Shown here one piece after another: positions 11,282-32,000 of a DNA stretch of 32,000 nt (position 1 is the stretch's first letter; each line of letters starts with the position of its first letter). The position numbers and the translations under genes are program-made. This stretch comes from Dickeya solani IPO 2222 (GTDB lineage: Bacteria; Pseudomonadota; Gammaproteobacteria; Enterobacterales; Enterobacteriaceae): NCBI RefSeq assembly GCF_001644705.1, contig NZ_CP015137.1, positions 330,001-362,000 of the forward strand, in the 5' to 3' direction. The notes under the pieces are model-generated. The model ran no database searches and was not told where the DNA came from. It was given only the letters and a program-made list of their open reading frames with translations.

Positions 11282-11685
11282 TTCACCAGTCACCGCAGCG
11301 GTGGGGCGTGTTATCACTGCTGCGGCCTTCCGTCTTCCCCGTCAATCATTAATAAAACAACGCAACCACTCTTTTTTCATCACCTTATATCGCTAGTTTA
11401 CTCCTCCCGGAGAATGCATTAGGAAACCACAGGGCATCATCAGGAAAATAACGCGATACGCATTCATTATAATAATTAACATAATCGGCAAGGGACGTAT
11501 TGAAAATTCCGAGAATGAGTCAAGCATCTGGATCTACTGTAGAAAATCCACTATAACCTAGAGAGTTTCATCATGTGCCACTATTGCAATATTGATGAAC
11601 ACACGACTGAATAGAATGAAACCAATCACATATTCTATTCATAGTTAACACTGACACATCATCATATGAAATGGAGATTCATTTT

Positions 11686-12963
11686 ATGCCTCTCGCTTAT
11701 TTGGATAAAAACCCAGTTACCCATAGCAAAAAACACGCTCCGCGGAAGAAATTGTTTCTGTCTTGTGCCGGTTTGGGATTAAGCCTTGCCTGCCTTTCCA
11801 GTAATGCCTGGGCGAGTGTTGAGCCATTATCCGTCAACGGTAATAAAATCTACGCAGGTGAAAAAGCCAAGAGTTTTGCCGGTAATAGCTTATTCTGGAG
11901 TAATAATGGTTGGGGTGGAGAAAAATTCTACACGGCCGATACCGTTGCTTCACTGAAAAAAGACTGGAAATCCAGCATTGTTCGCGCCGCCATGGGCGTT
12001 CAGGAAAGCGGTGGTTATCTGCAAGACCCTGCTGGCAACAAAACCAAAGTTGAAAAAGTGGTGGATGCCGCAATCGCCAACGATATGTATGTGATTATTG
12101 ACTGGCACTCGCATTCTGCAGAAAACAATCGCAGTGAAGCCATCCGCTTCTTCCAGGAAATGGCGCGTAAATATGGCAACAAGCCGAATGTCATTTATGA
12201 AATCTACAACGAACCGCTTCAGGTCTCATGGAGCAATACCATTAAACCTTATGCGGAAGCCGTGATTTCCGCCATTCGCGCCATTGACCCGGATAACCTG
12301 ATTATTGTCGGTACGCCCAGTTGGTCGCAAAATGTTGATGAAGCCTCACGCGATCCGATCAACGCCAAGAATATCGCCTATACGCTGCATTTCTACGCGG
12401 GGACCCATGGCGAGTCATTACGCAATAAAGCCCGTCAGGCGTTAAATAATGGTATTGCGCTTTTCGTCACCGAGTGGGGCGCGGTTAACGCGGACGGCAA
12501 TGGCGGAGTGAACCAGACAGAAACCGACGCCTGGGTAACGTTTATGCGTGATAACAACATCAGCAACGCAAACTGGGCGCTGAATGATAAAAACGAAGGG
12601 GCGTCAACCTATTATCCGGACTCTACAAACCTGACCGAGTCTGGCAAAAAAGTAAAATCGATCATTCAAAGCTGGCCATACAAAGTGGGTAACGCCGCCA
12701 GTGCAGCAACCGATCCGTCAACCGATACCACGAGCACCACCGTTGATGAACCGGCCACGACCGATACGCCGACAACAGCCAATTGCGCCAATGTCAACGT
12801 TTACCCCAACTGGGTTAGCAAAGACTGGGCGGGCGGGCAGCCTAATCATAACGAAGCAGGCCAATCGATCGTCTACAAAGGCAACCTTTATACCGCAAAC
12901 TGGTATACCTCATCCATCCCAGGCAGCGATGCCTCCTGGGCGCAGGTTGGTAGCTGTAACTGA
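11686..12963 (+). CDS. celZ: Endoglucanase Z: GH5 catalytic domain, Thr/Pro linker and C-terminal CBM5-type cellulose-binding domain
   Basis: From the second Met of the track ORF ([10 protein letters not shown]...) the sequence is almost colinear with Dickeya/Erwinia chrysanthemi EGZ as I remember it. It has a long signal peptide ending SSNAWA|SVEPLSV and GH5 motifs ([13 protein letters not shown]). The linker is [22 protein letters not shown]. The CBM is [15 protein letters not shown]...[12 protein letters not shown]...SC. Confidence 0.93.
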
Positions 12964-13033: not shown

Positions 13034-14311
13034 TTAATTGCGTTCAAAAGCGCCCAAATCCGGTGCGCTACCTGAATAGCTGATATTGCTCTCTTTCGTA
13101 CCCGCGTTAATCAGCTTTGAGTTAGCCGACAGACGGAATAACGAGGTTTCCGGCAACGTGCCGTCATTATCACGAGATACGGTAGCCAGCGAAGTATCCA
13201 GGCTGAAGAAATCGGACGCGGAAGCCGCCGGCCCCGTATCCCATGAGTTGGATTTCGCATCCGCATTATTGACCGTTACAGACGCAGACAGAGACACGTT
13301 GTTACGAAAGTAATGTTTCTGACCTGACTGTACGTTGCTCCCAAAACCATAATTAATGCCGTTTTTATATGACGTGTTATTTATTACCGTGACGCCGCCG
13401 GCGTTATTATTCTGATCAAAGCCTTTGCTCACATTGCCAAACGCAACGGAACGAGTAATACGATGATTGCCAACAGCCTGATTACCGCCCAGTTTGAACC
13501 CGTTGCCATTGCCGGCGAACGAGCTGTCATTCCAGTAATTAATACCATTACGGAAAGCCCAACTGTCTTCAATCACGACTTTCTGCGGACTGTCAAATAA
13601 GTCAAACCCGTCATCCGAGTTTTCCCAGGCGCGACAACCGACAAAGCGGTTACCCGGCCCCTGTTTTTGTTTTGGTCCAAACCCATCGGCCATACTGCCG
13701 TTCTTCTTGGGATCATAGTTACGATAGGCATCGGAATTAATTACCGTGTTGTATGACCCGCCGTTATTGATTTCAAGACCGGTATTACGGTTATGATGGA
13801 ACGCCGTATTCTCAAAGGTATTATGGCTACCAATCACATAAGCTCCCTGATAACCGGCTCGGGTTACCTCAACGCCTTTGAAATACCAGTAGTCGCCGGT
13901 CACATAAAACCCGTAAGACGCCTGTACCCATTGGCTGTCAGGGAATGAAAAGTCAAATACCGCCCGGCCACAATTGGCGGTTGCCACATAAATTGGCGCC
14001 CCCTCTTTCCCGGATTTATTGAATGTAATGGTATTCCCTTTTCCCTGAGTATAAGGAATGGTATAGGTTCCTGGTTTCAACAGAATCAACTCGCCAGGGT
14101 TAACCGCCGCCATAGCGGCGGAAAAACTCATCGGAGAATTAAAACTGCCGCCGTTATTGCTGCTGTTACCATTCGGCGCAACATAATAAATACGCTTGGT
14201 GCTAATTCCGCTGGTGAGATCTGAACTGCAGTCCGCTGCCAGAACTGACGTGCTATTTACCAGAAAAAATGCCGCCAACCCGGTACTGATAAAGCAATTT
14301 AAATATTTCAT
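13034..14311 (-). CDS. pelL: Pectate lyase L (PL9, right-handed beta-helix)
   Basis: From the Met at 14311 (GAGG 7 nt upstream): MKYLNCFISTGLAAFFLVNSTSVLA|ADCSSDL... The body (YYVAPNGNSSNNG...GELILLKPGTYTIPY...NSDDGFDLF...GNGNGFKLGG) matches my memory of Dickeya PelL/Pel9A. The track start at 14323 has no SD. Confidence 0.9.
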   Translation of the reverse strand: MKYLNCFISTGLAAFFLVNSTSVLAADCSSDLTSGISTKRIYYVAPNGNSSNNGGSFNSPMSFSAAMAAVNPGELILLKPGTYTIPYTQGKGNTITFNKSGKEGAPIYVATANCGRAVFDFSFPDSQWVQASYGFYVTGDYWYFKGVEVTRAGYQGAYVIGSHNTFENTAFHHNRNTGLEINNGGSYNTVINSDAYRNYDPKKNGSMADGFGPKQKQGPGNRFVGCRAWENSDDGFDLFDSPQKVVIEDSWAFRNGINYWNDSSFAGNGNGFKLGGNQAVGNHRITRSVAFGNVSKGFDQNNNAGGVTVINNTSYKNGINYGFGSNVQSGQKHYFRNNVSLSASVTVNNADAKSNSWDTGPAASASDFFSLDTSLATVSRDNDGTLPETSLFRLSANSKLINAGTKESNISYSGSAPDLGAFERN

Positions 14312-14454
14312 CCTTTGCCTCATAATGTTGTAAAAATTATCTATCCATTGGCCTCAAGATGCATACTCCGGCAAATGTCGTCAGGCGGGGAAAAGGCTGT
14401 GATCCGCTGCATCTAAAATCGATAGCCTAATGAATCAGTCTGTCACTGTGAAAA

Positions 14455-14667
14455 TTACGTTGGAAGGGTACCATTCCTTCGGTTTTCCCTGAACAGAGGC
14501 TGTTCTGAGTACATTGCATCCTGCATATTGAGGTGGCGTGAGTATACTACGTTTACGGTATATGAATACTGACCGCAACCGGATGCTATTCGGTTGTTAA
14601 AGACATATATGCCATTCGCAGCACATCCGCTATGATAAAGCATCAGGCAAAAGACAAAAAAAGCCAT
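14455..14667 (-). CDS. Hypothetical small Cys-containing protein with a hydrophobic N-terminus
   Basis: ORF track, 70 aa. Good SD (tAGGTGAGcgagaaATG). MAFFVFCLMLYHSGC is signal- or lipobox-like but not canonical. It lies in an AT-rich tract. No homology recognised. Confidence 0.3.
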   Translation of the reverse strand: MAFFVFCLMLYHSGCAANGIYVFNNRIASGCGQYSYTVNVVYSRHLNMQDAMYSEQPLFRENRRNGTLPT

Positions 14668-15006
14668 TTCTCGCTCACCTAAATAAAAATCACATTATTA
14701 GTGTATTAATTTAATATTGAGAGCATCATTTATATTTGAATAGAATAACCATTGTACTTAATAGCAGATAAAGATATTGCCGCACGGATGTCTTGCTATC
14801 TCCATCTGACAACACCGGCTGTTCATCCCCACATTACCGCCTCCAGCAACCCCGTGTTTGCTGATAACTGAGCCATCACCCATCGCTGCCATCACCATGT
14901 GGCAGCTGGTTTAATGACAGGCATATAACGCGAGACAACGCGTGAAAGCATCCTGTTATCTCCGCCGTTATTACTCTGCCTGAAAAACCAACGACTGGAC
15001 TCACAC

Positions 15007-15318
15007 ATGAATGAAACAGATAAAAGCATCGTCTCTCTATTTATCATCGGCACGCTGATTGCCGCCGGCAAAGTGCTGGCGGGCAGCGAGCCCATCACAC
15101 TGCGGCTATTTATTGGTCGCGTGATGCTGGGCGGTTTTGTCTCAATGATGGCAGGCATCGCACTGGTACAGTTCCCTGACCTGTCGCCCGTCGCTATCAA
15201 CGGCATTGGCGCCGCACTGGGCATCGCCGGCTACCAGACTATCGAACTGCTTATTCAACGCCGTGTTCGCCAACTGGGCAAAAAAAACACACCAGGGAAA
15301 AATAACGATGCTCAATAA
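15007..15318 (+). CDS. Class I (three-TMD) phage-type holin
   Basis: ORF track, 103 aa. Three hydrophobic segments (SIVSLFIIGTLIAAGKVLAG; LRLFIGRVMLGGFVSMMAGIALV; VAINGIGAALGIAGYQTIELLI) are followed by a basic tail, QRRVRQLGKKNTPGKNN. Its 3' end overlaps the endolysin start by 11 nt. Confidence 0.8.
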   Translation: MNETDKSIVSLFIIGTLIAAGKVLAGSEPITLRLFIGRVMLGGFVSMMAGIALVQFPDLSPVAINGIGAALGIAGYQTIELLIQRRVRQLGKKNTPGKNNDAQ

Positions 15319-15796
15319 TCCTAACCTTATTGCGTTTTTAGATATGCTGGCTTTTTCCGAAGGGACCGCAACACATCCGCTCACCTGTAATCGTGGCTAC
15401 GACGTGATTGTCACCGGGATTGATGGCAAACCAGAGATTTTCACCGACTATCGGGATCATCCATTCGCCAATGGCCGTCCGGGCAAAATCTTCAACAAGC
15501 AGGGGCAGCGATCCACCGCTGCCGGACGCTATCAGCAGCTTTACCGCTACTGGCCCGCCTACAAAACGCAGTTGGCGTTGCCGGATTTCGGACCCCATTC
15601 GCAGGATACGCTGGCTATCCAGCTGATTCGGGAACAGCGTGCGTTGGACGACATTATGCAAGGCCGGCTTACCCTCGCCATTACCCGATGCAACAACATC
15701 TGGGCCTCATTACCGGGGGCTGGCTATGGCCAGCGCGAGCATAATGCCGAGCGATTGGTCGCCGTGTACCAGCAAGCAGGTGGGAGACTTGAATGA
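15308..15796 (+). CDS. Lambda-R-type endolysin (lytic transglycosylase, GH104-like)
   Basis: From Met35 of the track ORF: MLNNPNLIAFLDMLAFSEGT...GYDVIVTG...FTDYRDHPF...STAAGRYQ...LPDFGPHSQDTLAIQLI...RCNNIWASLPGAGYGQREH is colinear with phage lambda R as I remember it, including the catalytic Glu in SEGT. There is no N-terminal TM/SAR segment. Confidence 0.9.
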   Translation: MLNNPNLIAFLDMLAFSEGTATHPLTCNRGYDVIVTGIDGKPEIFTDYRDHPFANGRPGKIFNKQGQRSTAAGRYQQLYRYWPAYKTQLALPDFGPHSQDTLAIQLIREQRALDDIMQGRLTLAITRCNNIWASLPGAGYGQREHNAERLVAVYQQAGGRLE

Positions 15797-16233
15797 AAAG
15801 CGCCATGATCATCGCGGCCATCATGATTGCGCTTATCACAGGGGTTGGCGTGCAGTCCTGGCGGCTGCACAACGCCCGTCAGTTAACCGAACAGCAAGCG
15901 CAGACACTGTCGTTGCAACAGACAGCGCTGGATGAAAAATCCGGCCAGTTGAAAGCGCTGTCCGAACAGGCTGAACGCAACAATCTTGAGCAGGCACGAT
16001 TGCGCGACATGGCCGCCGATACTCAGGCGGCGCTCTCGCAACGGCAAAAAGTGGTGATGAGGTTACAACATGAGAACGAAGCGCTTAAACGCTGGGCTGA
16101 CACTGATCTGCCTGCTGATATTATCCGGCTGCGTCAGCGCCCCGCCTTCGCCGGTGGCCGTGCTTACCGTGAATGGCTGTCCCAGACTGACGCCCTGCCG
16201 GTTCCCGGCGGCCAGTCCACAAACCAACGGTGA
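15793..16233 (+). CDS. i-spanin (Rz-like)
   Basis: ORF track, 146 aa. N-terminal TM (AMIIAAIMIALITGVGV) followed by a long Gln/Ala/Leu-rich coiled-coil-like periplasmic part. ATGA overlap with the endolysin stop (15793-15796). Confidence 0.8.
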   Translation: MKSAMIIAAIMIALITGVGVQSWRLHNARQLTEQQAQTLSLQQTALDEKSGQLKALSEQAERNNLEQARLRDMAADTQAALSQRQKVVMRLQHENEALKRWADTDLPADIIRLRQRPAFAGGRAYREWLSQTDALPVPGGQSTNQR

Positions 16234-16405
16234 GCTGAACAGTCTGCTGGATGAAACTGAAGCCGCGCTGGCGACTTGCGCCGATCAGGTGGATACCATT
16301 ATTGCCTGTCAGGCAAAAAGCGATGCAACGCCCGACGCCACTGCTGCATCAGGGAATCAACCAGGCAGAGATTCAACAGGGATAGGTACGTCTGTGCCGC
16401 AATGA
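16070..16405 (+). CDS. o-spanin (Rz1-like outer-membrane lipoprotein), overlapped architecture
   Basis: ORF track, 111 aa, in the +1 frame of Rz. Lipobox LLILSG|C. The mature N-terminus is Pro-rich (VSAPPSPV...CPRLTPCRFPAASP). SD GAGG lies 8 nt upstream. It starts inside Rz and runs 172 nt past the Rz stop. Confidence 0.75.
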   Translation: MRTKRLNAGLTLICLLILSGCVSAPPSPVAVLTVNGCPRLTPCRFPAASPQTNGELNSLLDETEAALATCADQVDTIIACQAKSDATPDATAASGNQPGRDSTGIGTSVPQ

Positions 16406-16525
16406 TCTCCGCCCTTGAGACAAGGTGGACCACTGGAAGATAAAGTTGGGAAGCGATGTTTCAGACTTGGACGTCAGGGCGACCGAGCCAGGAAATTGAG
16501 GTATTCCCATTCAAGCCAGTCGCTC

Positions 16526-16807
16526 ATGACTTTCAACCCAAATCAGGTCGTGTTTTCTCTTTTATCGACGCACTCTGCATGTATATACGGCCTATGCCTT
16601 TTCGTTTTAGCCGCCACAGTATTTCTCTGGCAGCACCTCTCAACGAATTTGCAGGCTTTTCAAAACCGAAATTTTAGGGTCGACGGTATTGTCTACATAT
16701 TCCTCTTTATGAGGACACGGGTAAAAACAGATCTGGAGGTAGCGGGCCTGTTCACGTTTCGGCCTGGCGGTTACGCTATTGCAGTGGGGCTGACGCGGCG
16801 GCAATAA
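16526..16807 (+). CDS. Hypothetical membrane protein (start uncertain)
   Basis: The internal Met of track ORF 16415..16807 gives MTFNPNQVVFSLLSTHSACIYGLCLFVLAATVFLWQH..., with one clear TM. No SD and no recognisable family. Confidence 0.3.
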   Translation: MTFNPNQVVFSLLSTHSACIYGLCLFVLAATVFLWQHLSTNLQAFQNRNFRVDGIVYIFLFMRTRVKTDLEVAGLFTFRPGGYAIAVGLTRRQ

Positions 16808-16826
16808 AAAACCGCCCGAAGGCGGC
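16805..16826 (-). terminator. Rho-independent terminator of the 16845..17042 gene
   Basis: GC stem ccgcc (16812-16816) / ggcgg (16821-16825) with tetraloop cgaa. On the minus strand it is followed by a T6 run (A6 at 16806-16811 on the plus strand). Confidence 0.6.
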
Positions 16827-16844
16827 CATAACGCGTTAAGGTTA

Positions 16845-17042
16845 TTAATCGTTCTCTAACGCACGCTGAATAATATCAGCGGTTTGAGTGATTCTACTAC
16901 CGATCGCATCCAGAGCGACTTGCACACCACTTTCGCTGGCACCCTCTTTGATGATTTCGAGTATAGCTGAGACGACTATCTCTCTCTTCTCTTCATCACT
17001 TCTTGCGACATCATGCTGATCATAAAAATAATTCTTAAGCAT
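16845..17042 (-). CDS. Small acidic helical protein of unknown function (65 aa)
   Basis: ORF track. Excellent SD (aAAGGAGtctttATG) and its own terminator. No signal peptide or TM. Family not recognised. Confidence 0.6.
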   Translation of the reverse strand: MLKNYFYDQHDVARSDEEKREIVVSAILEIIKEGASESGVQVALDAIGSRITQTADIIQRALEND

Positions 17043-17293
17043 AAAGACTCCTTTTCATTATCAATGGGCGCAGCATATCGCTAAGATTATTCTGAATAAA
17101 GCATTATCACAGGTAATCAGTGATCTCCGCGTTTACATGCCTTTCCTCTGCTCAATCGCTGAGCCAAACGCATGGAAAAGCCGTTGTGACCGTAGGTCCG
17201 GAACAAAGACAGCGCAGTCGGGCAGATCGCCAATAACCCTAAGACACTGCTTTTGAGATTATCATTACTTTAGGAGGGTAACGAGATATAAGG

Positions 17294-17480
17294 ATGAATA
17301 GCAGGACGCTAATAGCAGAAATCAGGGCGACGATTGGGAGAACTGATAAGAATTAACGGAAGTCATCAGCACTTTACCCATCCAACCAAACCGGGATTAG
17401 CGGCCATTCCCTACCCTAAGAAGGATTGACCGATAGACACGGTAAAAAGCATCTGGAAATGGCCGCCACTTGCCACATTA
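17294..17480 (+). pseudogene. hicA: hicA-family mRNA-interferase toxin gene, decayed
   Basis: ATG 17294 follows AGGAGG. Frame 0 reads MNSRTLIAEIRA..., then stops at 17354. The HicA-like continuation ELIRINGSHQHFTHPTKPGLAAIPYPKKD*PIDTVKSIW lies in the +1 frame from ~17331 and contains an in-frame TGA at 17427-17429. No hicB follows. Confidence 0.5.
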
Positions 17481-17487
17481 CAGGCAC

Positions 17488-17509
17488 AAAAAAACCGCCT
17501 CGTGGCGGT
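17488..17509 (-). terminator. Rho-independent terminator of the tRNA operon
   Basis: Stem accgcc (17494-17499) / ggcggt (17504-17509) with loop tcgt. On the minus strand it is followed by a T7 run (A run at 17488-17494 on the plus strand). It lies ~48 nt downstream of the tRNA-Leu 3' end. Confidence 0.7.
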
Positions 17510-17556
17510 CATGTTCTTTTATTTATTTTCTTATTCATCAAGGCGTTAGCACATAG

Positions 17557-17640
17557 TGCCCAGAGCGGGACTTGAACCCGCACAGCGCGAACGCCGAGGG
17601 ATTTTAAATCCCTTGTGTCTACCGATTCCACCATCTGGGC
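17557..17640 (-). tRNA. leuZ: tRNA-Leu (anticodon UAA)
   Basis: Reverse complement: GCCCAGATGGTGGAATCGGTAGACACAAGGGATTTAAAATCCCTCGGCGTTCGCGCTGTGCGGGTTCAAGTCCCGCTCTGGGCA. Acceptor stem GCCCAGA/TCTGGGC, anticodon loop TTTAAAA (UAA) and a long variable arm. It is almost identical to E. coli leuZ as I remember it. The genomic 3' trailer is CTA, not CCA. Confidence 0.93.
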
Positions 17641-17648
17641 TCAGATTT

Positions 17649-17722
17649 TGGAGGCGCGTCCCGGAGTCGAACCGAGGTGGGCGGATTTGCAATCCGCTGC
17701 ATGGCCACTCTGCCAACGCGCC
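17649..17722 (-). tRNA. cysT: tRNA-Cys (anticodon GCA)
   Basis: Reverse complement: GGCGCGTTGGCAGAGTGGCCATGCAGCGGATTGCAAATCCGCCCACCTCGGTTCGACTCCGGGACGCGCCTCCA. Acceptor stem GGCGCGT/ACGCGCC, anticodon loop TTGCAAA, CCA encoded. An 8-nt spacer separates it from tRNA-Leu. Confidence 0.93.
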
Positions 17723-18193: not shown

Positions 18194-19609
18194 TTAGGCT
18201 GTATCGGGCTGTTTCGCAGAAGATGATGTAATTGGGGAACGCAACCTGGAGCTTTCCCAGTCGATCCGTTCAAACAAAATAATGGTGATAGCTGCTATTA
18301 ATAGGTTTGTAATAGGAAATGCCCACCACAGGCCGGAGATGCCTAGCGAGGTATAGTGGGATAATCCCCATGCCAGCGGGATCTGAACCAGCCATTGAGA
18401 AATCAGCGCCAGTGTCATGGTCGTCATTGTGCGTCCTGTTGCGCGAAAAGCACCATTTAAAGCCATCTGTAATCCAATCAATCCATAGCTTGGCGCGATG
18501 ATATGAAAGAAATGCGTCCCATGATTAATGACCTGGGTCTGTTCAGGCGCAAATAAACCAATAATATAAGGCGTAAAAGCGAATCCTATCAGGCCAATCA
18601 TTGTCAGAGTTAAAAATGAGATCGTTGCGCTCAAACGCCCAATGGCTCGTGCACGCTCAAATTTCCCCGCCCCAATATTTTGTCCAACCAGTGTTGCGGT
18701 AGCGATTGACATGCCAATCGCCGGTACAATAACAAGCGCATTAATATTATTTACTACACCGTAAGCCGCCGTGACCGCTGTCCCCAGCCCGGTCACCAGA
18801 GACATCATACCACTTGCGCTTAATGCATGAGCACACAGCTCAATTGACGAGGGCATTCCTAGCCGAACGACAGATTTAAAAACAGTAAATCTGGGTTTCA
18901 TCGCACGAAAATAAATCTTAAGACTAATACGGCTGAAACGTAAGGCCAAAAATCCTGCGACCATCGCAATGCATTGATTAATGAGAGTGGCAATACCTGC
19001 CCCCGTTACGCCAAATGCGGGAATAATCCCATAACCAAAGATAAATAGTGGGTCCATGATGGCGTTGAGAATCAGCGTACCCAGCGTGATCAATAATGGG
19101 ATACGGACTTCACCCGCCCCCCTCATCAGGGATTGCAGCATGGCAAAGCCAAAGGTAAATACCAGACCACTAATCAGAACGCGCAAAAAGCTGAGTGCGA
19201 GGGGAAAGACCTCGTCCTGAGTACCGAGCGTATGCAACATCCAGGGTGCAAGAAAATACCCTACCACCGAGATAGGTATTGAAAATAGCAATGACAACAT
19301 GAATACCTGGGCCGCAATATCGTTTGCATCCCGATACAAGCGGGCCCCGATACACTGCGCGACCAGTGTTGTACCGGCTATACTCAAGCCAATGCCCAAA
19401 GCAAAAGCAAGAAAAATTATGGGCTGGCTTACCGATATTGCCGCCACGGCTTTATCCCCCAAACGCCCCACCCAGAAAGCATCAATCATGATGTATCCGG
19501 ACTGTAAAAGATTGGCAAAAATAACGGGAACACCCATTGTTATCAGTGAGCGTAATATCGAACCTTGCAACAAGGTATTTGATGTTTCATTGGAGAGTTC
19601 AGAAGACAA
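18194..19609 (-). CDS. MATE-family efflux transporter (cluster-associated exporter)
   Basis: ORF track, 471 aa. Polytopic, with two MatE-like halves (GVPVIFANLLQSGYIMIDAFWVGRLGDKAVAAISVSQPIIFL...; GMPSSIELCAHALSASGMMSLVTGLGTAVTAAYGVVNNI...). Confidence 0.85.
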   Translation of the reverse strand: MSSELSNETSNTLLQGSILRSLITMGVPVIFANLLQSGYIMIDAFWVGRLGDKAVAAISVSQPIIFLAFALGIGLSIAGTTLVAQCIGARLYRDANDIAAQVFMLSLLFSIPISVVGYFLAPWMLHTLGTQDEVFPLALSFLRVLISGLVFTFGFAMLQSLMRGAGEVRIPLLITLGTLILNAIMDPLFIFGYGIIPAFGVTGAGIATLINQCIAMVAGFLALRFSRISLKIYFRAMKPRFTVFKSVVRLGMPSSIELCAHALSASGMMSLVTGLGTAVTAAYGVVNNINALVIVPAIGMSIATATLVGQNIGAGKFERARAIGRLSATISFLTLTMIGLIGFAFTPYIIGLFAPEQTQVINHGTHFFHIIAPSYGLIGLQMALNGAFRATGRTMTTMTLALISQWLVQIPLAWGLSHYTSLGISGLWWAFPITNLLIAAITIILFERIDWESSRLRSPITSSSAKQPDTA

Positions 19610-19813: not shown

Positions 19814-20356
19814 TTAAGGCGACGCAAAACAATCACTCACTCTAAAAATAAGAAGCTTACCGAGTAACTCTTGACGAATCCTATTATCCTGACCAAAAGT
19901 GAAAATATGGATTTTCATCAACGCCCTGTCCGGCTTGGAAGAGGATACCTCTATTTCAGTAATCTTTGCTTTTATTCTCAATATATCACCGGGTCGGGTA
20001 GGCCTAAGCCAGTTGATCTTCTCAACCCCTGTACCAATAATACCGTGCGCCAGAGGTAAGCTTTTAACCAGTAGATTCATGGTAATACTTACTGTGTGCC
20101 AGCCGCTCGCGGCCAGGCCTCTGAAGATGGAATCTTTTGCCAGTTTATCATCCATATGAAAGGGTTGCGGGTCATACTTCATCGAAAACTCGGTTATTTC
20201 ATCTACGCTGACATAATACTCAGAGCTATAAAAAACCTGACCGACTTTAAGGTCATCAAAATACAGCTTTGGTGGTGTCACATCCTTAACTTCGCTTCCT
20301 ATAGAGTATTTTTCATCATTACTCAAATAGTCGTTTGAATAATTTCCATCATGCAT
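19814..20356 (-). CDS. MaoC-like hot-dog fold (R)-hydratase/dehydratase
   Basis: ORF track, 180 aa. FDDLKVGQVF...VSVDEITEFSMKYDPQPFHMDDKLAKDSIFRGLAASGWHT fits the MaoC hydratase-2 region, with the Asp and His of the D-x-x-P-x-H motif retained. The gene is markedly AT-rich. Confidence 0.8.
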   Translation of the reverse strand: MHDGNYSNDYLSNDEKYSIGSEVKDVTPPKLYFDDLKVGQVFYSSEYYVSVDEITEFSMKYDPQPFHMDDKLAKDSIFRGLAASGWHTVSITMNLLVKSLPLAHGIIGTGVEKINWLRPTRPGDILRIKAKITEIEVSSSKPDRALMKIHIFTFGQDNRIRQELLGKLLIFRVSDCFASP

Positions 20357-20472: not shown

Positions 20473-21198
20473 CTATGAAAAAGCCATCCAACCTGTCTTA
20501 TTTTGGCCTTGCCTCATCCGAAACTTTATAAAACCTTCCGCATTGTCGAATAATAAATAAATGTTATAACGAAATACTTGTTCAAACGTTAAACCGGGTG
20601 GATGCACATAACTATGCCCAGGATAAATGCGGACCTTTCCGGGTAACATCGTCTTAAGGCGTTCAATACTCGCAAACAAACTTGCCGCATCCGCATAATT
20701 GGAACACAGACCGCAGCCCTCAATGAACAGCGTATCACCAGTAAAGACGTGCTGACCGATCCAATAACAGGTACTTCCTGACGTATGGCCCGGCGTAATT
20801 ATCGGACGAATAAGCATTCCTGCAACATCCCAAGAGCACTCTTCAAACGTACGCATAGATGGAATACAGAATCCTGAAGACGCCGCCTCCTTACGCGATA
20901 TCCACACCGGGCAACGATGTTTATTTGCCAAATACTCAGCAAGATCAATATGGTCAGGATGAGCATGGGTTATCAATATTCCCGCAAGCTCTGCGTTGGC
21001 ATCCTTCAACGCGGTTTCCAGTGTGTCTATTTCCCACGCGGGATCAATCAGCAATGCCTGGCTAATGCGACGGTTAAGCACCATATAGTTGTTATTGATA
21101 AAACGACCACGGTTGACCTTTAACGTCGTCACCGCAATATCGTCTGATGAAATCGCGCACTCTAACGCCGACAACGCTATCTTATTTTCCAGCCACAT
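20473..21198 (-). CDS. Metallo-beta-lactamase-fold hydrolase, glyoxalase-II-like
   Basis: ORF track, 241 aa. ITHAHPDHIDL (HxHxDH), TPGHTSGS, FTGDTLF and YPGHSY cover the metal-ligand positions of glyoxalase II-type thioester hydrolases. Confidence 0.85.
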   Translation of the reverse strand: MWLENKIALSALECAISSDDIAVTTLKVNRGRFINNNYMVLNRRISQALLIDPAWEIDTLETALKDANAELAGILITHAHPDHIDLAEYLANKHRCPVWISRKEAASSGFCIPSMRTFEECSWDVAGMLIRPIITPGHTSGSTCYWIGQHVFTGDTLFIEGCGLCSNYADAASLFASIERLKTMLPGKVRIYPGHSYVHPPGLTFEQVFRYNIYLLFDNAEGFIKFRMRQGQNKTGWMAFS

Positions 21199-21491: not shown

Positions 21492-22778
21492 TCACGCTTT
21501 AGGAATGATGACTTTCAGATTTTCAAAACCATGTAAAAAGTTAGAGTAATTACGCTCCGGCTCTTCAAGTACCTCTATTCTGGAAAAACGCTTGAGAATT
21601 TCTTCCCAGATAACTGTCAGTTGCATTTCGGCAACCCGACTGCCGATGCAGGCATGTACACCAACGCCAAAGGAGAGATGCCGGCGGGCGCGTTCACGGT
21701 CGATGCTGAAGGTATCGGGATCTTCAATCGCCGAGGCATCTCGGTTACCGGACGTGTACCACATGACGACACGATCGCCTTCCTTGATGTTTTTGCCACG
21801 GATTTCAACATCGTGGGTGGCAACACGACTCATAAAATTAACCGGGGGGTGGAAGCGCAGCGTTTCCGATATCATCGGCATCACCAGCTTAGGATTTGCC
21901 TTGAGCTTGGCGAACTCTTCTGGATATTTATCAAGCAGGTAAAGGCTGCTGGAGATAGTGTTACGCGTCGTGTCGTTACCACCGATAATCAGCAGGACAA
22001 CGGTACCGCGGAACTGTTCTAACGTCATATCGCGTGTGTCGGGGTGATTCGCCAGCATCGAGATAAGGTCATAGCTTGGCGGCCCATTGCGGCGTTTTTC
22101 CCACAGCGCCTCAAAGACTTGATAGCATTTAACGGTTTCTTCTGCCTTTTGCTCCCAGCTTTTCACCAGGCCATGTCCCGGCTCGAACATCAGCAGGTCA
22201 GACCAAAATGTCAGCTTACGGCGATCTTCAAAAGGAAAATCGAGCAGCGTCGCCAGGACTGTCGCGGTGAGCTCCTTGGATACCCGATCGACCCAGTCAA
22301 AGGGTTCGCCGATCGGCAGGCTGTCGAGAATAATTCCCGCACGCTCACGCATAATCGGCTCCATTTGAGCCAGGCTGGAAGGCCCCACGGCCGGTGTTAC
22401 CGCCTTGCGGTGTTTAGTATGCTCGGGGGGGTCCATCGTGATGAAGCCAACGCTTTTCCGTCGTTCATGGCCCAAAGCCTGCAGCGCCGCTTCGAGTTTG
22501 GTCTTCTCTTCAATCGATTTCAGATCGATGTTCTGAGTGGAGGTGAAATCGCGATAGTTATTTCCAACAACGCGAATATCCTCCCACAGCGTGAGCGACC
22601 AGTAAGGCCCAAATTCGCTTTCCGGCGTGAAATGCACCGGGTCTTCACGTCTGAGACGCTCGAACATCGGCAATTCAGCAGCATTAATGAAACGATCCCG
22701 ACTTGCCGGGTTGATTTTCTCTAACGGGATCGCGTTGATATCCTCAAAAACATCCTGTAATTGTTTAGTCATTTTCAT
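21492..22778 (-). CDS. Cytochrome P450, CYP153-like soluble class I type
   Basis: ORF track, 428 aa. Heme loop FGVGVHACIGSRVAE (FxxGxxxCxG), ExxR (ETLRF), I-helix LLIIGGNDTTRN, and ITMDPPEHTKHRKAV. I associate GGNDTTRN with CYP153 terminal hydroxylases. Confidence 0.88.
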   Translation of the reverse strand: MKMTKQLQDVFEDINAIPLEKINPASRDRFINAAELPMFERLRREDPVHFTPESEFGPYWSLTLWEDIRVVGNNYRDFTSTQNIDLKSIEEKTKLEAALQALGHERRKSVGFITMDPPEHTKHRKAVTPAVGPSSLAQMEPIMRERAGIILDSLPIGEPFDWVDRVSKELTATVLATLLDFPFEDRRKLTFWSDLLMFEPGHGLVKSWEQKAEETVKCYQVFEALWEKRRNGPPSYDLISMLANHPDTRDMTLEQFRGTVVLLIIGGNDTTRNTISSSLYLLDKYPEEFAKLKANPKLVMPMISETLRFHPPVNFMSRVATHDVEIRGKNIKEGDRVVMWYTSGNRDASAIEDPDTFSIDRERARRHLSFGVGVHACIGSRVAEMQLTVIWEEILKRFSRIEVLEEPERNYSNFLHGFENLKVIIPKA

Positions 22779-22905
22779 CCACTCATTACGTTTTTAGACA
22801 GTGCTACACACTTTCGATAGTGCTTCGATAGCGCTACAGCACGTGGCCGCAGAAGGGGCCTATTGGCGAATCCCGGCACCTTCCAGGGTATGCAGACGCA
22901 AACCT

Positions 22906-25900
22906 TTATTGATCCGCACCCACATGCACAAACTGAAGCCACCATCGAACCAGCTCGATAACATGCGGGGCTTTCAACACCGTAAAGTGCTGCGCCGGCC
23001 CCGCGATGATTTCCAGCTCTTCAGCCCAACGGCCCCATCCCACCGCATCTTCACGTCGGCGGTTAAGATCCTCGTCAGGATTCATCCACGGATCGCGCAC
23101 CTGTATCAGGTTTACCTGACCGTGGTAGCGTGCTGCCGGTAGATAATGCGTTTGTCTCGCGGCATAAAAGGTTTGCCACGAGCCTTGCAGTAGCCGCGAA
23201 GACGAATTGGCCGGAATTTTCCCCGCGCGATGAAGGTACTGGTGCACCGTAGACAACACCTGTTCAATGTCGTGACGGGCGTAAAGGGATTCATCAATAT
23301 CCAGCGTCGTCTCTACATTGAATCCGATGCTTTCGACATACTCGCGCATGCACTCAGCCAGGCTCGGCGCTACGGCGGCATCCTTGCTGCCAAGAGGCGC
23401 TTCTGAATCGATCAGCGTCAACGATGCTACGCGACAACCTTGGGCCGCTAATCGGCTCGCCATTTCGAACGCCACCTGCCCGCCAAAAGAGTGGCCAAGC
23501 AGGTGAACGGGCATCGTTTCACCGATACCCGCCTGACGAATAGCCGCAAGGTTACGGGCAGCCGCCGCCTCAACCGACAGATCCGGCACGCCAACACCAT
23601 CAATCCCTTTAGGCAGCAGGCCATAAACCGGCTGCCCGCCGGGCAACGCCTGTACGAACGGTATGAAATCCGTGACGCCCGCTCCGGCACCCGGCACACA
23701 AAACAGCGGCGTGCTATTGGCTGTGCCTTTTTGCAAGGTGATTAGCGGCTTGAAATCAGCCGTCGCCGCGGGGGCTGAACGTGTCGCCGGGCGTGGCTTT
23801 GCGCCAGCCTCAAAAGCGGGTGCCGGATGGTTGACCACATTGAGCTGACCGATCGGTGAATCCGGAGTGGAAACCATCGCTTCAAGCGTGGCGAGATAGC
23901 CGGCAGCCATACGCTCGGCCGTTTCACGGCGAAACAGGTCGACGGCATATTCCAGAATGCCATCCATCCCCAGCGGTTCACCTTCATCGCTATATTTTTC
24001 GTACAGCATGAAATAGAGATCCCACTTGGCGTTACCGCTGTGGACTGGGTATACCTGCGCCGCGAGGCCGGGGATATCAAAGGTTTCCGATGGCGCGTTT
24101 TGCAGGATCATCATGGTCTGGAACAGCGGATAATGCGACGGCGAGCGCACCGGCAATAACTCGCCGACCAGCTTCAGGTAAGGAATATCCTGATGACCAT
24201 ACGAGCTTAACGCCTGTGTGCGTACCCGTTCGAGCACCTCATTAACACGGGGATCCCCGGAGGTATCAACACGCATGACCCATTGCGTCAGGAAGCATCC
24301 CACCAGATCATTCAGCGCGTCGTCGCTACGCCCCGCGGAAACCGCACCAAGCGGGATATCCTCACCTGCGCCCAACCGGGTGTAATAGATACCCAGCGCC
24401 GCCTGCAATACCATCGACAACGTCATGTTGCGCTCACGCGCAAGGGCACTCAAACGCCGGTGCAAACGGGCATCGATCTGCAAAGGCAACATCTCGCCGC
24501 GATAGCTGGGTTTTACCGGGCGCGGGTAATCTTCCGGCAGCGCGAGCGTCGCAGGTAAGCCCGCGAGTGTTGTCTTCCAGTACGCCAACTGTTCTGCAAA
24601 CAGGCTGTTCGGATCATTAGGATCGCCGAGCAGCTCACGATGCCACACCGCGTAGTCGGCATATTGCACCGGCAACGGGGCGAACTGCGGCGCGTAACCG
24701 GCGAGACGTGCCTGATAGGCATGCGTGAGATCCCGTGTCAGCGGCGCCAGCGAAAACGCGTCACAGGCAATATGGTGGAATAGCATCACCAGAATGTGCG
24801 CCTGCGGTCCAACCCGGAGTATCGAAGGACGGAACGGCAGATCAACCGACAGATCGAACACCGAGGTAATCGCGGTAAATACCGCCTGATGCGCCTGCTC
24901 TGCGCTCACTTCCGTGTACGGGATATCGATATGGACATCGGCGAATGGCTCGACCACCTGCACCGGTTGCCCATCCACCATGCCAAAACGGGTACGCAGC
25001 GTTTCATGACGTTCCACCAGGTCGTACAGCGCCGCCGTTAACGCCGCCTGATCCAGCTCGCCCTCAAGCGAGACGACAATCGGCGTATTGAGTGATGAAT
25101 TATCACCACGCGTGTTCTGCCCAACCCACATCAGCTGCTGGCCGTAGGACACCGGCAGGGGATCGGGGCGCGGCTCGACCTTACTTAACGCCTGGCGGAC
25201 GTTGATCTGCTCATCAAGCTGCTTCGCCAGACTGGCCACCGTAGGATTTTCAAATAGCAGCCGCACCGGCAGCTCAATACCCAGTCTGGCACGAATACGT
25301 CCGATCAATCCGGTGGCCAGAATCGAGTGTCCGCCCATCGCAAAGAAGTCATCGTCAATGCCGATGTGCGGATGCTGGAGTAATTCGGCATACAGCTCGC
25401 ACAGCACCGCTTCGCGCGCATTACGCGGTGCCCGATAGGCGGCGGTATCACTGAATTCAACCGCCGGCAGCGCCTTGCGATCCACTTTCCCGTTAGCGGT
25501 CAGCGGGAATTGCGCCAGCGCCACGATACGCGCCGGCACCATATAGTCAGGTAAGTGCTCACTCAGATAATCCTGCAACGCCGTCTCAGACGCTTGCAGA
25601 CCAGCGCTAACCACGTAGGCGACCAGACGCTTGCCGCTGCCGTTATCCACCGCCAGCACCAACGCGTTATCGACGTGCGGATGTTCGGCCAGACGCGCCT
25701 CTATCTCACCCAGCTCAATACGAAAACCGCGCAGCTTGACCTGTTGATCGTTACGCCCCACAAAGACAAGGTTGCCATCGTCCTGATAGCGCACCAGATC
25801 GCCGGTGCGATACAGGCGGGCGTGCGGGTCAGCCACAAACGGATTGGCAACGAAACGTTCAGCGGTCAGATCGGCACGATTCAGATACCCCAGCGCGACG

Positions 25901-28628
25901 CCGTCCCCGCCGATATACAGCTCGCCAATGGCGCCTAATGGCGCGGGATGCTGATGCTTATCCAGCACGTAGAGCTGGGTATTGCCGATGGGACGCCCGA
26001 TGGGAATGCTGGCCGCATTGGCCGCAACGTCATGGATCGGGTAGGTGGTGGCAAAGGTGGTGGTTTCAGTCGGGCCGTAGCCATTGACCAGCTTCGCCGA
26101 TGGCGTCGTGCGCAGCACCTGGGCAATGATGTTCGGATCGAGCGCATCACCGCCGATAAACAGAGACGTGAACTGCGCGATCACCGGGGCCAGTTCGCTA
26201 TACAGCTGGTTGAACAAGCCCACGGTCAGCCACATCTGGTTCACGCGATGATGCTGAAGCGTGCGCACCAGCCGTGCCGGCGTGAGCAAGGTATCCTGAT
26301 CAATCACCACGCAGGTGCCGCCATTGAGCAACGGCGCCCAAATTTCCAACGTGCTCGCATCAAAGGCGGTGTTGGCGGCAAGGGCCATGCGATCGCCCGG
26401 CGCAAACACGCCGACGCCGCTATTAATCACCAGCCGATTGATAGCGTAATGCGGCACCAATACGCCTTTCGGTATCCCGGTCGAGCCGGAGGTGTAGATG
26501 ATATAAGCCGGCGCGGCGGCGGCAGTCTGCACATCGACGGCGGCATCACTCGCCTGCACCACCTCAGCGCTATCGACATCAATCACCGGCAGATCGATGT
26601 CTGCCGCCAGCGCGTGATGGGCGTCGCTGATCAGGAGGCGAGCGGAGCAATCCTCGATAACCCAGCTTAAGCGCTCTGGCGGCGCCAGTGGGTCCAGCGG
26701 CACGTAAGTCGCGCCCGCCTTGAGTATAGCAAGCGTCGCCGCCAGCAATGCGCTGCCACGCGGCAGCAATAACGCCACAAAATCCCCCGGCTGTACCCCG
26801 TGGGCTACCAGCACCTGCGCCAGTTGGTTGGCGCGCTGATTCAGGCGGCAATAGCTCATCTGCGCTTCGCCGTCGATGACCGCAATCGCGTCTGGCGTGC
26901 GAGCCGCCTGTTGCTCGAATAACCGGTGAACAGGTTCATTCGCGGGATAAGAGGCTGCCGTCGCGTTCCAGTCAACCAGCAGGCGCGTGCGCTCGCCGGC
27001 GGGCAGGATGTCCAGCGCATGCATTGGCGTAGCGGGGTTGCTGTCCAGCGCATCGGCAAGGCTTTTCATGGTCTGCTGGAGATAGCCAATAATCCGTTGC
27101 GCAGACAACGGCGCTGCCGCGAGTACGTTCAGACGCAACGTCTCACCGAAGTCATCCACCGACACGGTCAGCGGGTAATCGGTGCGCTCTTCAAAGCCGT
27201 GCCATTCCACGTCATCACGTTCACCGGAAACATCAACGCTTTCGTCTTCCGCCTGCTGATTATGGCGGTAGTTGAACAGCACATTGAACAAGGCCGTTGG
27301 CGGCGCAATACCGCTGCAACGCTGAACCAGACTGAGAGCGGCATGTTCATGATCCAATAATGCCGCCAGACGCTTATGCGTCAAACGGACACTGTCTTCC
27401 ACGCCGACATTCCCCAGATCCAGGCGGATCGGCAGCGTATTAATGAACGGCCCCATGATCTGATCGGCACCCTCGCCGGCCTGCAACCGGCCAAGCAGAA
27501 TGGTACCGAACACCACCGTATCGCTGTCGCTGGCGCGTGCCATCACCTGCCCCCACACCAGATGACAGAGGCTCCCCATACTGACGCCAAGACGGCGCGC
27601 ATGAGCACGCAAACGCGCGACGATAGCCGGTTCTACATTCTGGCGCCGCTCAACAACGCTGGCGCTGTCCACCGCCCCATTAGCCATGCCGAACGCGAGC
27701 GTCGGCGCATCAATGTCACCCAGCATCTGGCGGAAGAAGAGCTCGTGCTGAATATCTGACGCCCCTGCGCGTATCCTGGCGATCAGACGGCGGAACGGTT
27801 GCGGCGCGGGCAATAGCTGACCACGGCCCATGATAAAGGCCGTAATATCGCGGATCATGATCTGCAACGAGGCGATATCATCGATCAGGTGATGCAGCAG
27901 CATGAGCATTTCCCAGCGCCCGCTTTGCCGGTCCTGAGCGACATACAGACTCAGCAGCGGCGCCTGAGTCAGGTCAATACGGTAATGCGATGGATGATAG
28001 CGTTCGACCAATTGGTCCATGACAGGGCCATTGGTCGGGTCAAGTTCAACTTCCGTGACCTGCACGCGTGCGTGACGCAGCACCACCTGTGCCGAGCGCG
28101 ACAAACCGCGCGAGAAAAACGCCGTGCGCAGAATGTCATGCCGGTTAATGGTGTGCTGAACCGCCTCCACGTATTGCGTCATCACCTCACGGTTAGCCAG
28201 AGAGATCCTGGCAAACTGTAGGTAAGGGTCCCCCTTGTCGCTCAACTGGTGCAGAAAGAGGATCCCGTCCTGCAACGGCGTCAATGCGTAGATATCCTGC
28301 ACATTCGCTACGCCGCCCGGCACGCTGGCAACAATATGCGCGATATCAGCCTCAGTGAGATCAATCAGCGGCAACATCTCTGGCGTCAGGTGGGTGGTCT
28401 CTGGAGCGATCCGATTCGCCGGTACCCTTGAGCCGCTATTCCCGCCTTGCGGGGATAAATCTCTTCCCTGACGCAGTGCGTCGACGAGAGCAGGTTTGTG
28501 CTCTCGCAACGCCGCCTTGATATCAGGGGTCAACGACCCCTTCGCTGCCTTGACGACCAGAGATTCACCATCCAGCGATAAGGCGATGTTGGCCTCATCC
28601 AGTGTCTGCAAAAGGCCATCGAAATCGA

Positions 28629-28632
<4 letters not shown>
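22906..28632 (-). CDS. Non-ribosomal peptide synthetase, docking-C-A-T-C-TE (terminal module)
   Basis: ORF track, 1908 aa. Hand-mapped domains follow. TubC-N-type docking, aa 1-56 (28465-28632). C1, aa ~85-535 (DIYALTPLQDGILF; HHLIDD = 27877-27894). A, aa ~565-1058 (YIIYTSGSTGIPKGV, NGYGPTETT, GELYIGGDGVALGY, YRTGDLV, GRNDQQVKLRGFRIELGEIE, NGKVDRK). T, aa ~1070-1140 (FFAMGGHS; Ser codon 25324-25326). C2, aa ~1158-1588 (SYGQQLMW, RHETLRTRF, HHIACDAFS, YADYAVW, HQDIPY). A 45-aa Ala/Pro linker follows. TE, aa ~1638-1900 (GHSFGG; Ser codon 23488-23490). ATGA overlap with the upstream NRPS stop. Confidence 0.93.

Positions 28633-32000
<3,368 letters not shown>

Follow-up and report, generated by a model that had tools for sequence, protein, structure and literature searches.

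The closest analogue of the synthetase terminus described here is that of the glidonin synthetase GdnB, a nonribosomal peptide synthetase (NRPS) whose C13-A*-T13-TE1-TE2 ending comprises a condensation (C) domain, a degenerate adenylation (A) domain, a carrier (T) domain and two thioesterase (TE) domains. C13 has no working cognate A domain and uses a small molecule, free putrescine, to take the chain off the carrier before it (PMC10587159). The TEs downstream remain hydrolytically active without being responsible for release: Ser mutants or deletion of TE2 still give the final products at lower yield, the distal TE matters more for yield than the proximal one, and it has been suggested that both clear stalled intermediates (PMC10587159). 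In the arthrofactin synthetase, by comparison, TE1 is essential for cyclization and release, and TE2 only raises efficiency (PMC3039948). A C-fold domain between the last T domain and the TE is also found in the teicoplanin synthetase Tcp12, where it is the X domain (PDB 4TX2/4TX3). The freestanding enzymes VibH (an amide synthase), Bamb_5915 and SgcC5 share the concept of a C-fold enzyme that releases a carrier-bound acyl or peptidyl donor by joining it to a free alcohol or amine, but they have no TE fused to them; Bamb_5915 of enacyloxin biosynthesis (PDB 6CGO) is an ester-forming release domain. Here, we analyze SolH, the NRPS that ends the solanimycin assembly line of Dickeya solani and that is encoded by the open reading frame (ORF) at 22906-28632 on the minus strand of the window, that is, the whole 32,000-nucleotide stretch of D. 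solani IPO 2222 under study (RefSeq assembly GCF_001644705.1, contig NZ_CP015137.1, positions 330,001 to 362,000). In SolH, the sole carrier is followed by a second C domain (C2) and a TE with no carrier in between. We tentatively favor, at a little less than even confidence, a reading in which C2 has been repurposed for offloading or coupling to a nucleophile that is not aminoacyl and is probably an oxygen one, the TE serving as an accessory hydrolase.

The window ORF and published SolH agree in sequence, length, domain string and the neighbors SolG, SolI, SolJ, SolK and SolL, and the NCBIfam models for SolG, SolI, SolJ and SolL score above their curated cutoffs on the ORFs that flank solH. 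The identical 1908-aa sequence occurs in at least 24 NCBI assemblies, among them CM001860, which is D. solani LMG25865 (PMC4028081). The architecture itself was known before, because Matilla et al. in 2022 published SolH of D. solani MK10 as a 1,908-aa NRPS with the string C-A-P-C-TE (PMC9765074); the same study found that deletion of solH abolishes antifungal activity. The remaining question is the mechanism of the last two domains. The two solanimycin papers assign the Val module of SolH and do not discuss roles for C2 and the TE (PMC9765074, PMC10204066), a full-text literature search for T-C-TE, PCP-C-TE, C-A-T-C-TE and similar strings returned nothing relevant, and a D. solani preprint of 2026 has nothing to add about the structure. 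New in the present analysis are the clade assignment of the TE, the substitutions at the acceptor gate and in the C5 motif of C2, the per-domain estimates of selection, a clean TE-less SolH in a further species and a testable proposal for the C terminus of solanimycin.

By ORF calling, translation and Pfam, SolH (stop codon 22906-22908) has the order TubC_N dock-C1-A(Val)-T-C2-TE, with all of the following coordinates on the minus strand. The TubC_N-type docking domain (aa 7-55; 28468..28614; Pfam PF18563, E 2.6e-11) precedes C1 (aa ~115-542; 27007..28290), a "dual"-clade C domain with the motif HHLIDDI that was delimited with a custom C hidden Markov model (HMM) and the translation and that is the published candidate for Ser dehydration (PMC10204066). 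The A domain (aa 568-1055; 25468..26931; custom HMM, with Pfam AMP-binding at 572-917 and AMP-binding_C at 976-1049) is predicted to select Val, and d8-Val labels solanimycin's C-terminal group (PMC10204066). The only carrier of the protein follows (aa 1067-1140; 25213..25434; Pfam PP-binding at 1076-1137, E 3e-16, and a T HMM, 107 bits), with its phosphopantetheine (PPant) residue at Ser1103 (codon 25324-25326). C2 (aa 1155-1601; 23830..25170; Pfam) is an LCL-derived condensation domain whose catalytic His1287 is encoded at 24772-24774; Pfam Condensation covers two stretches of SolH with an overall E of 6e-126, the best of them 1159-1601. An Ala/Pro-rich disordered linker (aa 1602-1640; 23713..23829) then leads into the TE (aa 1641-1908; 22909..23712; Pfam PF00975 Thioesterase at 1642-1896, E 2.5e-20), the triad codons of which are 23488-23490 for Ser1715, 23407-23409 for Asp1742 and 22987-22989 for His1882.

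That this protein ends in T-C-TE, C2 and the TE having no carrier between them, had been claimed in the original prediction, which was made from the letters alone and which proved exact in every motif and coordinate: GGHS with Ser1103 at 25324-25326, SYGQQLMW at aa 1162, RHETLRTRF at 1208, HHIACDAFS at 1286, YADYAVW at 1324, VGCFLTQWVMR at 1444 and HQDIPY at 1480 in the T and C2 domains, and GHSFGG at 1713 (Ser1715), LIDS at 1740 and GPAQHF at 1878 in the TE. Pfam domain calling, suggested there as a check, returned one PP-binding domain, at 1076-1137, and no other carrier in SolH at any E up to 1. Trained on 186 T domains and run with its filters off, a custom carrier HMM gave −0.3 and −0.9 bits downstream of aa 1141, as opposed to 115 bits for the true T domain. 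The predicted Ala/Pro linker is indeed present; its 39 residues (10 Ala and 6 Pro) would make up roughly half of a carrier domain. In the model that AlphaFold2 gave for T-C2-TE, with a mean predicted local distance difference test (pLDDT) score of 86.4 and a predicted template modeling (pTM) score of 0.64 that leaves the relative placement of the domains uncertain, C2 lies mostly above 85, and aa ~1600-1625 are the sole stretch below pLDDT 50 except for the final three residues and have no secondary structure. A cryptic carrier between C2 and the TE is ruled out by Pfam at E ≤ 1, the unfiltered custom HMM and the structure model taken together, and neither Pfam nor the custom HMMs find an A or T domain anywhere after C2. 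The T-C-TE ending of SolH is thereby confirmed. C2 has a donor carrier upstream and lacks a functional cognate A-T, the same placement as that of release C domains of the VibH and GdnB-C13 type.

C2 has the PF00668 fold with all seven C motifs recognizable, and ordinary LCL elongation domains are its nearest neighbors in both sequence and fold. Its best PDB matches are the DhbF cross-module fragment (5U89, 398 bits) and FscG PCP2-C3 (7KVW, 274 bits), with 43% and 37-38% identity, respectively, over the aligned T-C stretch, and Foldseek gives a similar ranking. The teixobactin C domains (~252 bits), the teicoplanin X domain (4TX2, 229 bits) and TycC5-6 (211 bits) follow; SgcC5 (4ZNM, 94 bits) and Bamb_5915 (55 bits) are only distant relatives, and the HtmB2-CT structures 8Z0Q/8Z0R, which represent a special terminal C domain, are ~30% identical to C2. 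A homolog search with T-C2-TE returned mainly generic actinomycete T-C(-A) proteins of ~45% identity, the listed matches all being shorter than 1500 aa, and only two orthologue fragments were among the matches listed.

This ranking bears on the possibility that C2 is a noncatalytic platform of the X-domain kind, which would recruit the P450 SolI or SolK to the carrier-bound chain and leave release to the TE. Such T-X-TE endings, the best-known precedent for a C-like domain in this place and one that the original prediction had passed over, are established in glycopeptide synthetases, the teicoplanin X domain reaches a template modeling (TM) score of ~0.9 on the target in Foldseek, several near-invariant C-domain residues have been lost from C2, and as in the teicoplanin system a P450 gene is adjacent, solI being immediately downstream of solH and essential (PMC9765074). 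Nevertheless, working LCL domains (398 and 274 bits) resemble C2 far more than X domains do (229 bits). X domains have a degenerate, inactive His motif of the HRxxxDD type, whereas both His residues and the Asp of HHxxxD (HHIACD in SolH), the catalytic second His included, are invariant in all seven sol orthologues. Moreover, PRDD is the X-binding signature of the Oxy P450s, and a scan of the SolI sequence found neither PRDD nor PRxD. As the TE-less orthologues described below would also be left with no release enzyme, the X-domain reading of C2 is disfavored, and we consider it decidedly unlikely.

Although the catalytic motif is intact, C2 departs from canonical LCL domains at 25 positions that are at least 80% conserved in 150 related LCL domains and are replaced in all seven sol orthologues, mostly by one fixed residue. 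In the C1 motif, where the LCL domains have Arg in 93% and Leu in 0% (n = 150), SolH has Leu1167 (25132-25134), as do all six orthologues that cover the position, the seventh being truncated N-terminally. The C5 motif F-x-N-T-L reads FLTQW in SolH, so that Asn (99%), Thr (91%) and Leu (93%) are replaced by Thr1449 (24286-24288), Gln1450 and Trp1451. Further replacements affect C3 (Gly, 88%, and Trp, 85%, to Ala1292 and Phe1293), C4 (Gln, 96%, to His1331) and C6 (Phe, 99%, to Tyr1485), as well as aa 1181 (Tyr, 99%, to Leu), aa 1369 (Arg, 87%, to Tyr) and aa 1477 (Ala, 98%, to Ser). Thus, besides having no downstream A-T, C2 differs from the canonical domains in its gate Arg, its C5 Asn and ~23 other near-invariant positions. 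The substitution to which the original prediction had drawn attention, Ala for the usual Gly of HHxxxDG, is real but minor: Ala also occurs in 6% of the 150 related LCL domains, and the substitutions elsewhere in C2 include much rarer ones.

The position of Leu1167 is of particular interest for the acceptor side. In the alignment to 7KVW (chain His217 = FscG His2697), it corresponds to FscG Arg2577, which Izoré et al. found to form a bottleneck of the acceptor channel and to be largely conserved in LCL domains (PMC8097023). That residue is proposed to repel an unloaded PPant arm and neutral or negative substrates and so to favor aminoacyl-PPant (PMC8097023). A kept catalytic His together with a rebuilt acceptor side made of fixed derived residues is the pattern that a change of acceptor, rather than decay, would predict.

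The same data can be set against a more conventional role, in which C2 would be a normal two-carrier C domain whose acceptor is supplied in trans, as a hydroxyacyl or other unit on SolD or on an acyl carrier protein (ACP) of fatty acid synthase, with the TE releasing the product from that foreign carrier. The 43% identity to the T-C stretch of the DhbF fragment and a fold like that of carrier-dependent LCL domains are in keeping with this idea, which would also give the TE a substrate and a role for which TE2-type TEs, working naturally without a carrier directly upstream, are suited. In addition, solD, which encodes a freestanding ACP, is essential (PMC9765074), and its role is unassigned (PMC10204066). 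The idea must contend, however, with the loss from C2 of the Arg by which the acceptor PPant arm is held and gated (PMC8097023), with the lack of any docking element or partner identifiable in the sequence and with TE-less orthologues that would have no release step. We regard a trans-acting acceptor carrier as improbable.

To place the TE, we used the linker and TE together as a query against 1.84 billion representative proteins and analyzed the best 150 relatives, whose source names include arthrofactin-type cyclic lipopeptide synthetase C, SyfB and SyrE. In 140 of these 150, the match falls on the distal one of two TEs in tandem (TE-TE). On average, the SolH TE scores 158 bits with the distal and 18 bits with the proximal TE of the same proteins, with the same direction in 127 of 127 proteins, and in an alignment of 73 pairs it is 37% identical to TE2 and 21% identical to TE1. 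It nests among the TE2 domains in a neighbor-joining tree, and it shares with them the motif GHSxG (His in 73/73), as opposed to G(W/Y)SxG in TE1. Ser1715, Asp1742 and His1882 align with the triad columns of the TE alignment, so the Ser/Asp/His set proposed earlier for this domain is borne out. On the basis of alignment and tree, the SolH TE is a member of the "second TE" (TE2) clade of tandem TEs.

What ArfC, SyfB and SyrE have in common with SolH is therefore a TE2-clade domain with 37% identity, GHSxG and the triad; a linker to the preceding domain, of 27-34 aa, is a further shared trait. They differ in that TE1, the real cyclase and release enzyme, stands before TE2 in their T-TE1-TE2 endings. 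In SolH, the domain before the TE is C2, joined via the 39-aa linker, and not TE1; because the TE is TE2-class and is preceded by C2, a C domain occupies the usual TE1 slot. GdnB differs from SolH in another way, as it retains the degenerate A*-T and its two TEs, which folding requires, and SolH has no A*, T or TE1 after C2. Among the 150 TE relatives, three metagenomic fragments (P0229, P0159 and P0183) have a C domain that abuts TE1-TE2 without A-T between, the C domain of P0229 ending 46 aa before TE1. These fragments represent either carrier-less C-TE junctions outside the sol family or assembly chimeras.

Some orthologous clusters encode a SolH without the TE. The SolH protein of Candidatus Pantoea multigeneris has 1603 aa and ends right after C2, with solI starting 25 nt downstream, so that this lineage has lost the TE but retained C2. 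The TE is likewise reported to be missing from SolH of Pantoea sp. A4 and of Erwinia sp. ErVv1 (PMC9765074). The Ca. P. multigeneris cluster also has no solJ; a strict co-loss of the TE and solJ was considered and rejected, as Erwinia sp. ErVv1 is reported with solJ and without the TE (PMC9765074).

Several side observations concern these clusters and the integrity of their genes. In the loci of Ca. P. multigeneris (L002, 11441-16091) and Rouxiella sp. (L003, 12393-16437), a macrolide/Rgt-type glycosyltransferase gene follows solI, and the products of both clusters probably differ from solanimycin, for instance by glycosylation of a hydroxyl group. In D. ananatis (CP146227.1; L019, 7900-8080), a frameshift at the T/C2 junction divides solH into a 1182-aa C-A-T ORF and a 746-aa C-TE ORF (P0002), which could be a real mutation or an assembly error. 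Two further proteins are recorded only as the 3′ part of solH, namely P0001 (828 aa, D. aquatica; T-C-TE) and P0306 (455 aa; C-TE). The solH gene of R. badensis CP114060.1 (L004, 6610-12286) extends over three reading frames, implying two frameshifts, and in two D. solani assemblies with identical SolH (L017 and L018, 7861-9140) solI is split into two or three fragments; the R. badensis frameshifts and the split solI are either pseudogenes or sequencing errors.

Selection on the individual domains was estimated by the Nei-Gojobori method as the ratio of nonsynonymous to synonymous substitution rates (dN/dS) in six pairwise comparisons across four genera, the orthologues being those of a Serratia metagenome-assembled genome (L001), Ca. 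P. multigeneris and Rouxiella sp. C2, with 78-83% identity, has a dN/dS of 0.05-0.12 that is indistinguishable from those of C1, A and T, and the TE evolves slightly faster (dN/dS 0.10-0.14, 67-75% identity); these ratios are rough, as dS is near saturation (~1.1-2.8), but dN, which is more reliable, gives the same ranking of the domains. The C2-TE linker evolves nearly freely, with 29-68% identity among the orthologues. Because its dN/dS equals that of C1, A and T, C2 is maintained by purifying selection.

These results speak directly to the simplest explanation, that C2 is an inert relic of a C-A-T-TE(-TE) module from which A-T was lost, with the TE hydrolyzing peptidyl-Val-S-T past a dead domain. 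C2 does derive from an ordinary elongation LCL domain, and partial losses are seen elsewhere, in the glidonin A* remnant (PMC10587159) and in the metagenomic C domains that abut TE-TE (P0229, P0159). Against a relic stand a dN/dS equal to that of essential domains across four genera, derived residues that are fixed and the retention of C2 where the TE is lost. Plain hydrolysis of Val-S-T cannot be the end of the pathway either, because the product carries ~C10H18O3 beyond Val. Finally, the C domains of the proteins with the best TE relatives score ~200-250 bits to C2, the terminal ones no better than the inner ones, as opposed to 398 bits for DhbF. C2 and the TE thus have different nearest relatives, so a simple internal deletion of A-T(-TE1) is not supported, nor is a shared origin of the two domains from one C-A-T-TE-TE module. 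We consider a dead domain at this position highly unlikely.

The chemistry of the product constrains the nucleophile. Murphy et al. in 2023 described solanimycin as a C16 hexaene aminoacyl-Gly-(Dha)5-[C-terminal group] molecule, Dha being dehydroalanine, with a C-terminal fragment R2NH3+ of m/z 304.2122 (C15H30NO5+) that contains d8-valine and is labeled by acetate (PMC10204066). Since valine supplies the only nitrogen of C15H30NO5+, the group after Val is neither an amino acid nor an amine, and the rebuilt acceptor side of C2 agrees with this formula. It was here that the original prediction went astray in its examples: amine capping by a terminal C domain, as in VibH or with putrescine, does not fit the fragment, and the diamine nucleophile of GdnB is likewise a point of difference, since the solanimycin fragment has no second nitrogen. 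The addition on Val amounts to C10H18O3, a formula that fits a Val ester of a C10H20O4 hydroxy acid and a chain extended through C-C bonds equally well.

For the second of these, which Murphy et al. favor, the published model has peptidyl-Val-S-T pass to a ketosynthase, either module 3 of SolA or a polyketide synthase (PKS) outside the cluster, for about five malonyl extensions; C2 would then be chemically idle in the main path, and the TE would hydrolyze the chain from a PKS carrier in trans or only edit. The acetate labeling of the C-terminal group, the equivalence of C15H29NO5 to Val plus five C2 units at suitable oxidation states and the lack of fragmentation after Val are all in its favor (PMC10204066), and SolA has a module without an assigned role that could be called upon (PMC10204066). 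On the other hand, the cluster has no enoyl or thioester reductase, entry in the middle of a PKS is unusual, as Murphy et al. themselves point out, and mutagenesis gave no essential gene outside the cluster (PMC10204066). The model also leaves a strongly conserved and specifically remodeled C2 of 447 aa unexplained and would rely on a TE from a clade not known as a primary release enzyme. In our judgment, polyketide extension of Val is unlikely.

An ester is the other solution to the formula. Val (C5H11NO2) plus C10H20O4 minus H2O gives C15H29NO5, the published C-terminal fragment, so an ester to a fatty-acid-derived dihydroxy-C10 acid is possible. C2 would then be an ester-forming offloader that transfers acyl-Gly-(Dha)5-Val to a hydroxyl of this acid, the TE only editing the carrier or hydrolyzing an acceptor thioester. 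The MaoC-type hydratase SolK could supply a 3-hydroxyacyl precursor, for which it is a plausible candidate given that production falls 73-fold without it (PMC10204066), and the second hydroxyl could come from a P450, SolI being proposed by Murphy et al. to act on the N-terminal polyketide (PMC10204066). In this fully specified form, the proposal is a candidate that we hold to be possible yet doubtful.

The less specific reading of C2 as a repurposed offloading domain, which we favor, would run as follows. C1-A-T of SolH would add Val to the acyl-Gly-(Dha)5 chain, after which C2, a former LCL elongation domain, would most likely take peptidyl-Val-S-T from its own upstream carrier as the donor. 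It would couple or offload the chain onto a nucleophile other than a carrier-bound α-amino acid, probably a neutral oxygen nucleophile. The TE would not be the primary release enzyme; it may clear stalled or misacylated carriers or act as a slow back-up hydrolase, and it could accordingly be dispensed with in some lineages. A terminal C domain acting without a cognate A-T, beside a redundant or editing TE, was among the possibilities raised in the original prediction, and its amine examples apart, it is the one that the evidence indirectly favors, because the TE falls in the accessory TE2 clade, a TE-less orthologue keeps C2 and C2 is without the acceptor-gate Arg.

Several points weigh against this reading, in addition to the near-saturated dS noted above. 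Purifying selection fits scaffolding as well as catalysis and does not distinguish between them, and the replacement of the near-invariant C1 Arg and C5 Asn would be just as compatible with a catalytically inactive domain kept as a scaffold. The TE-less clusters are known from genes alone as far as product formation is concerned. Murphy et al., moreover, dispute an ester or amide after Val, as no fragmentation occurs there in tandem mass spectrometry (PMC10204066).

The genes around solH are those of the published cluster and lie on the same strand. Upstream, solG (28629..32000, its N terminus lying beyond the end of the window) encodes a C-A-T Ser module and scores 2506 bits against a cutoff of 2200 with NCBIfam NRPS_SolG, SolG being placed at 28629-31982 and beyond. 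Downstream are solI (21492..22778; cytochrome P450; P450_SolI 937 bits, cutoff 850), solJ (20473..21198; MBL-fold, GloB-like hydrolase; MBL_fold_SolJ 477 bits, cutoff 350), the deletion of which has no phenotype (PMC9765074), solK (19814..20356, between solJ and solL; MaoC-like hotdog hydratase/dehydratase; Pfam MaoC_dehydratas, E 5.5e-12) and solL (18194..19609; MATE exporter and last gene of the cluster; MATE_SolL 926 bits, cutoff 780). As called, the solL ORF begins with TTG and, at 471 aa, exceeds the published length of 447 aa by 24 aa, and a 56-aa ORF at 22775-22945 on the minus strand, which overlaps the solH stop and the solI start and has no Pfam match, is probably spurious. SolG (N-terminal end at 31900-32000) and SolH (28468-28614) have very similar TubC_N-type docking starts (...ALREHK..ALR.G..L), both on the minus strand, and the first C domains of both proteins have HHLIDDI in place of HHxxxDG; this likeness bears on the published idea that SolG protomers dock mutually and iterate the addition of Ser.

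Beyond solL, genes for tRNA-Leu(taa) and tRNA-Cys(gca) lie at 17556-17722 on the minus strand, ~470 bp past the end of solL, and GC content falls from 0.56-0.61 in the NRPS genes to 0.44-0.50 at the tRNA region, a pattern suggestive of the edge of a sol island gained by horizontal transfer. Some 3 kb without a long ORF (~14400-17500) separate the tRNAs from a pectate lyase gene. A LysC/Rz1-like lysis ORF at 16070-16405 on the plus strand (Pfam PF23793, E 7e-17), which overlaps an ORF at 15793-16233, probably marks a remnant phage lysis cassette. Farther out are soft-rot housekeeping neighbors, a GH5 cellulase with a cellulose-binding domain (11671-12963, plus strand), a PelN-like pectate lyase (13034-14323, minus strand; 226 bits, under the equivalog cutoff of 740), a methyl-accepting chemotaxis protein (6385-8112, plus strand) and a YeeO-type MATE transporter (9123-10646, plus strand).

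Solanimycin is a potent antifungal whose biosynthesis poses the questions of how five dehydroalanines arise from one Ser module and of what the C-terminal group is and how it is attached. Published models give the last 750 residues of SolH no role and invoke a PKS that is not obviously encoded by the cluster. A conserved C2 remodeled on its acceptor side, together with an accessory-type TE, makes the problem of the C terminus experimentally addressable. If ester offloading by C2 holds true, the C terminus of solanimycin would be explained without an invisible PKS, and SolH would exemplify an in-line release module of bacteria, T-C-TE(TE2), whose missing gate Arg signals that neutral oxygen nucleophiles have taken the place of amines. 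The Arg-to-Leu change could then serve as a sequence marker for such C domains, and NRPS engineering would gain a useful part in a compact T-C-TE unit by which a nucleophile other than an amino acid is attached.

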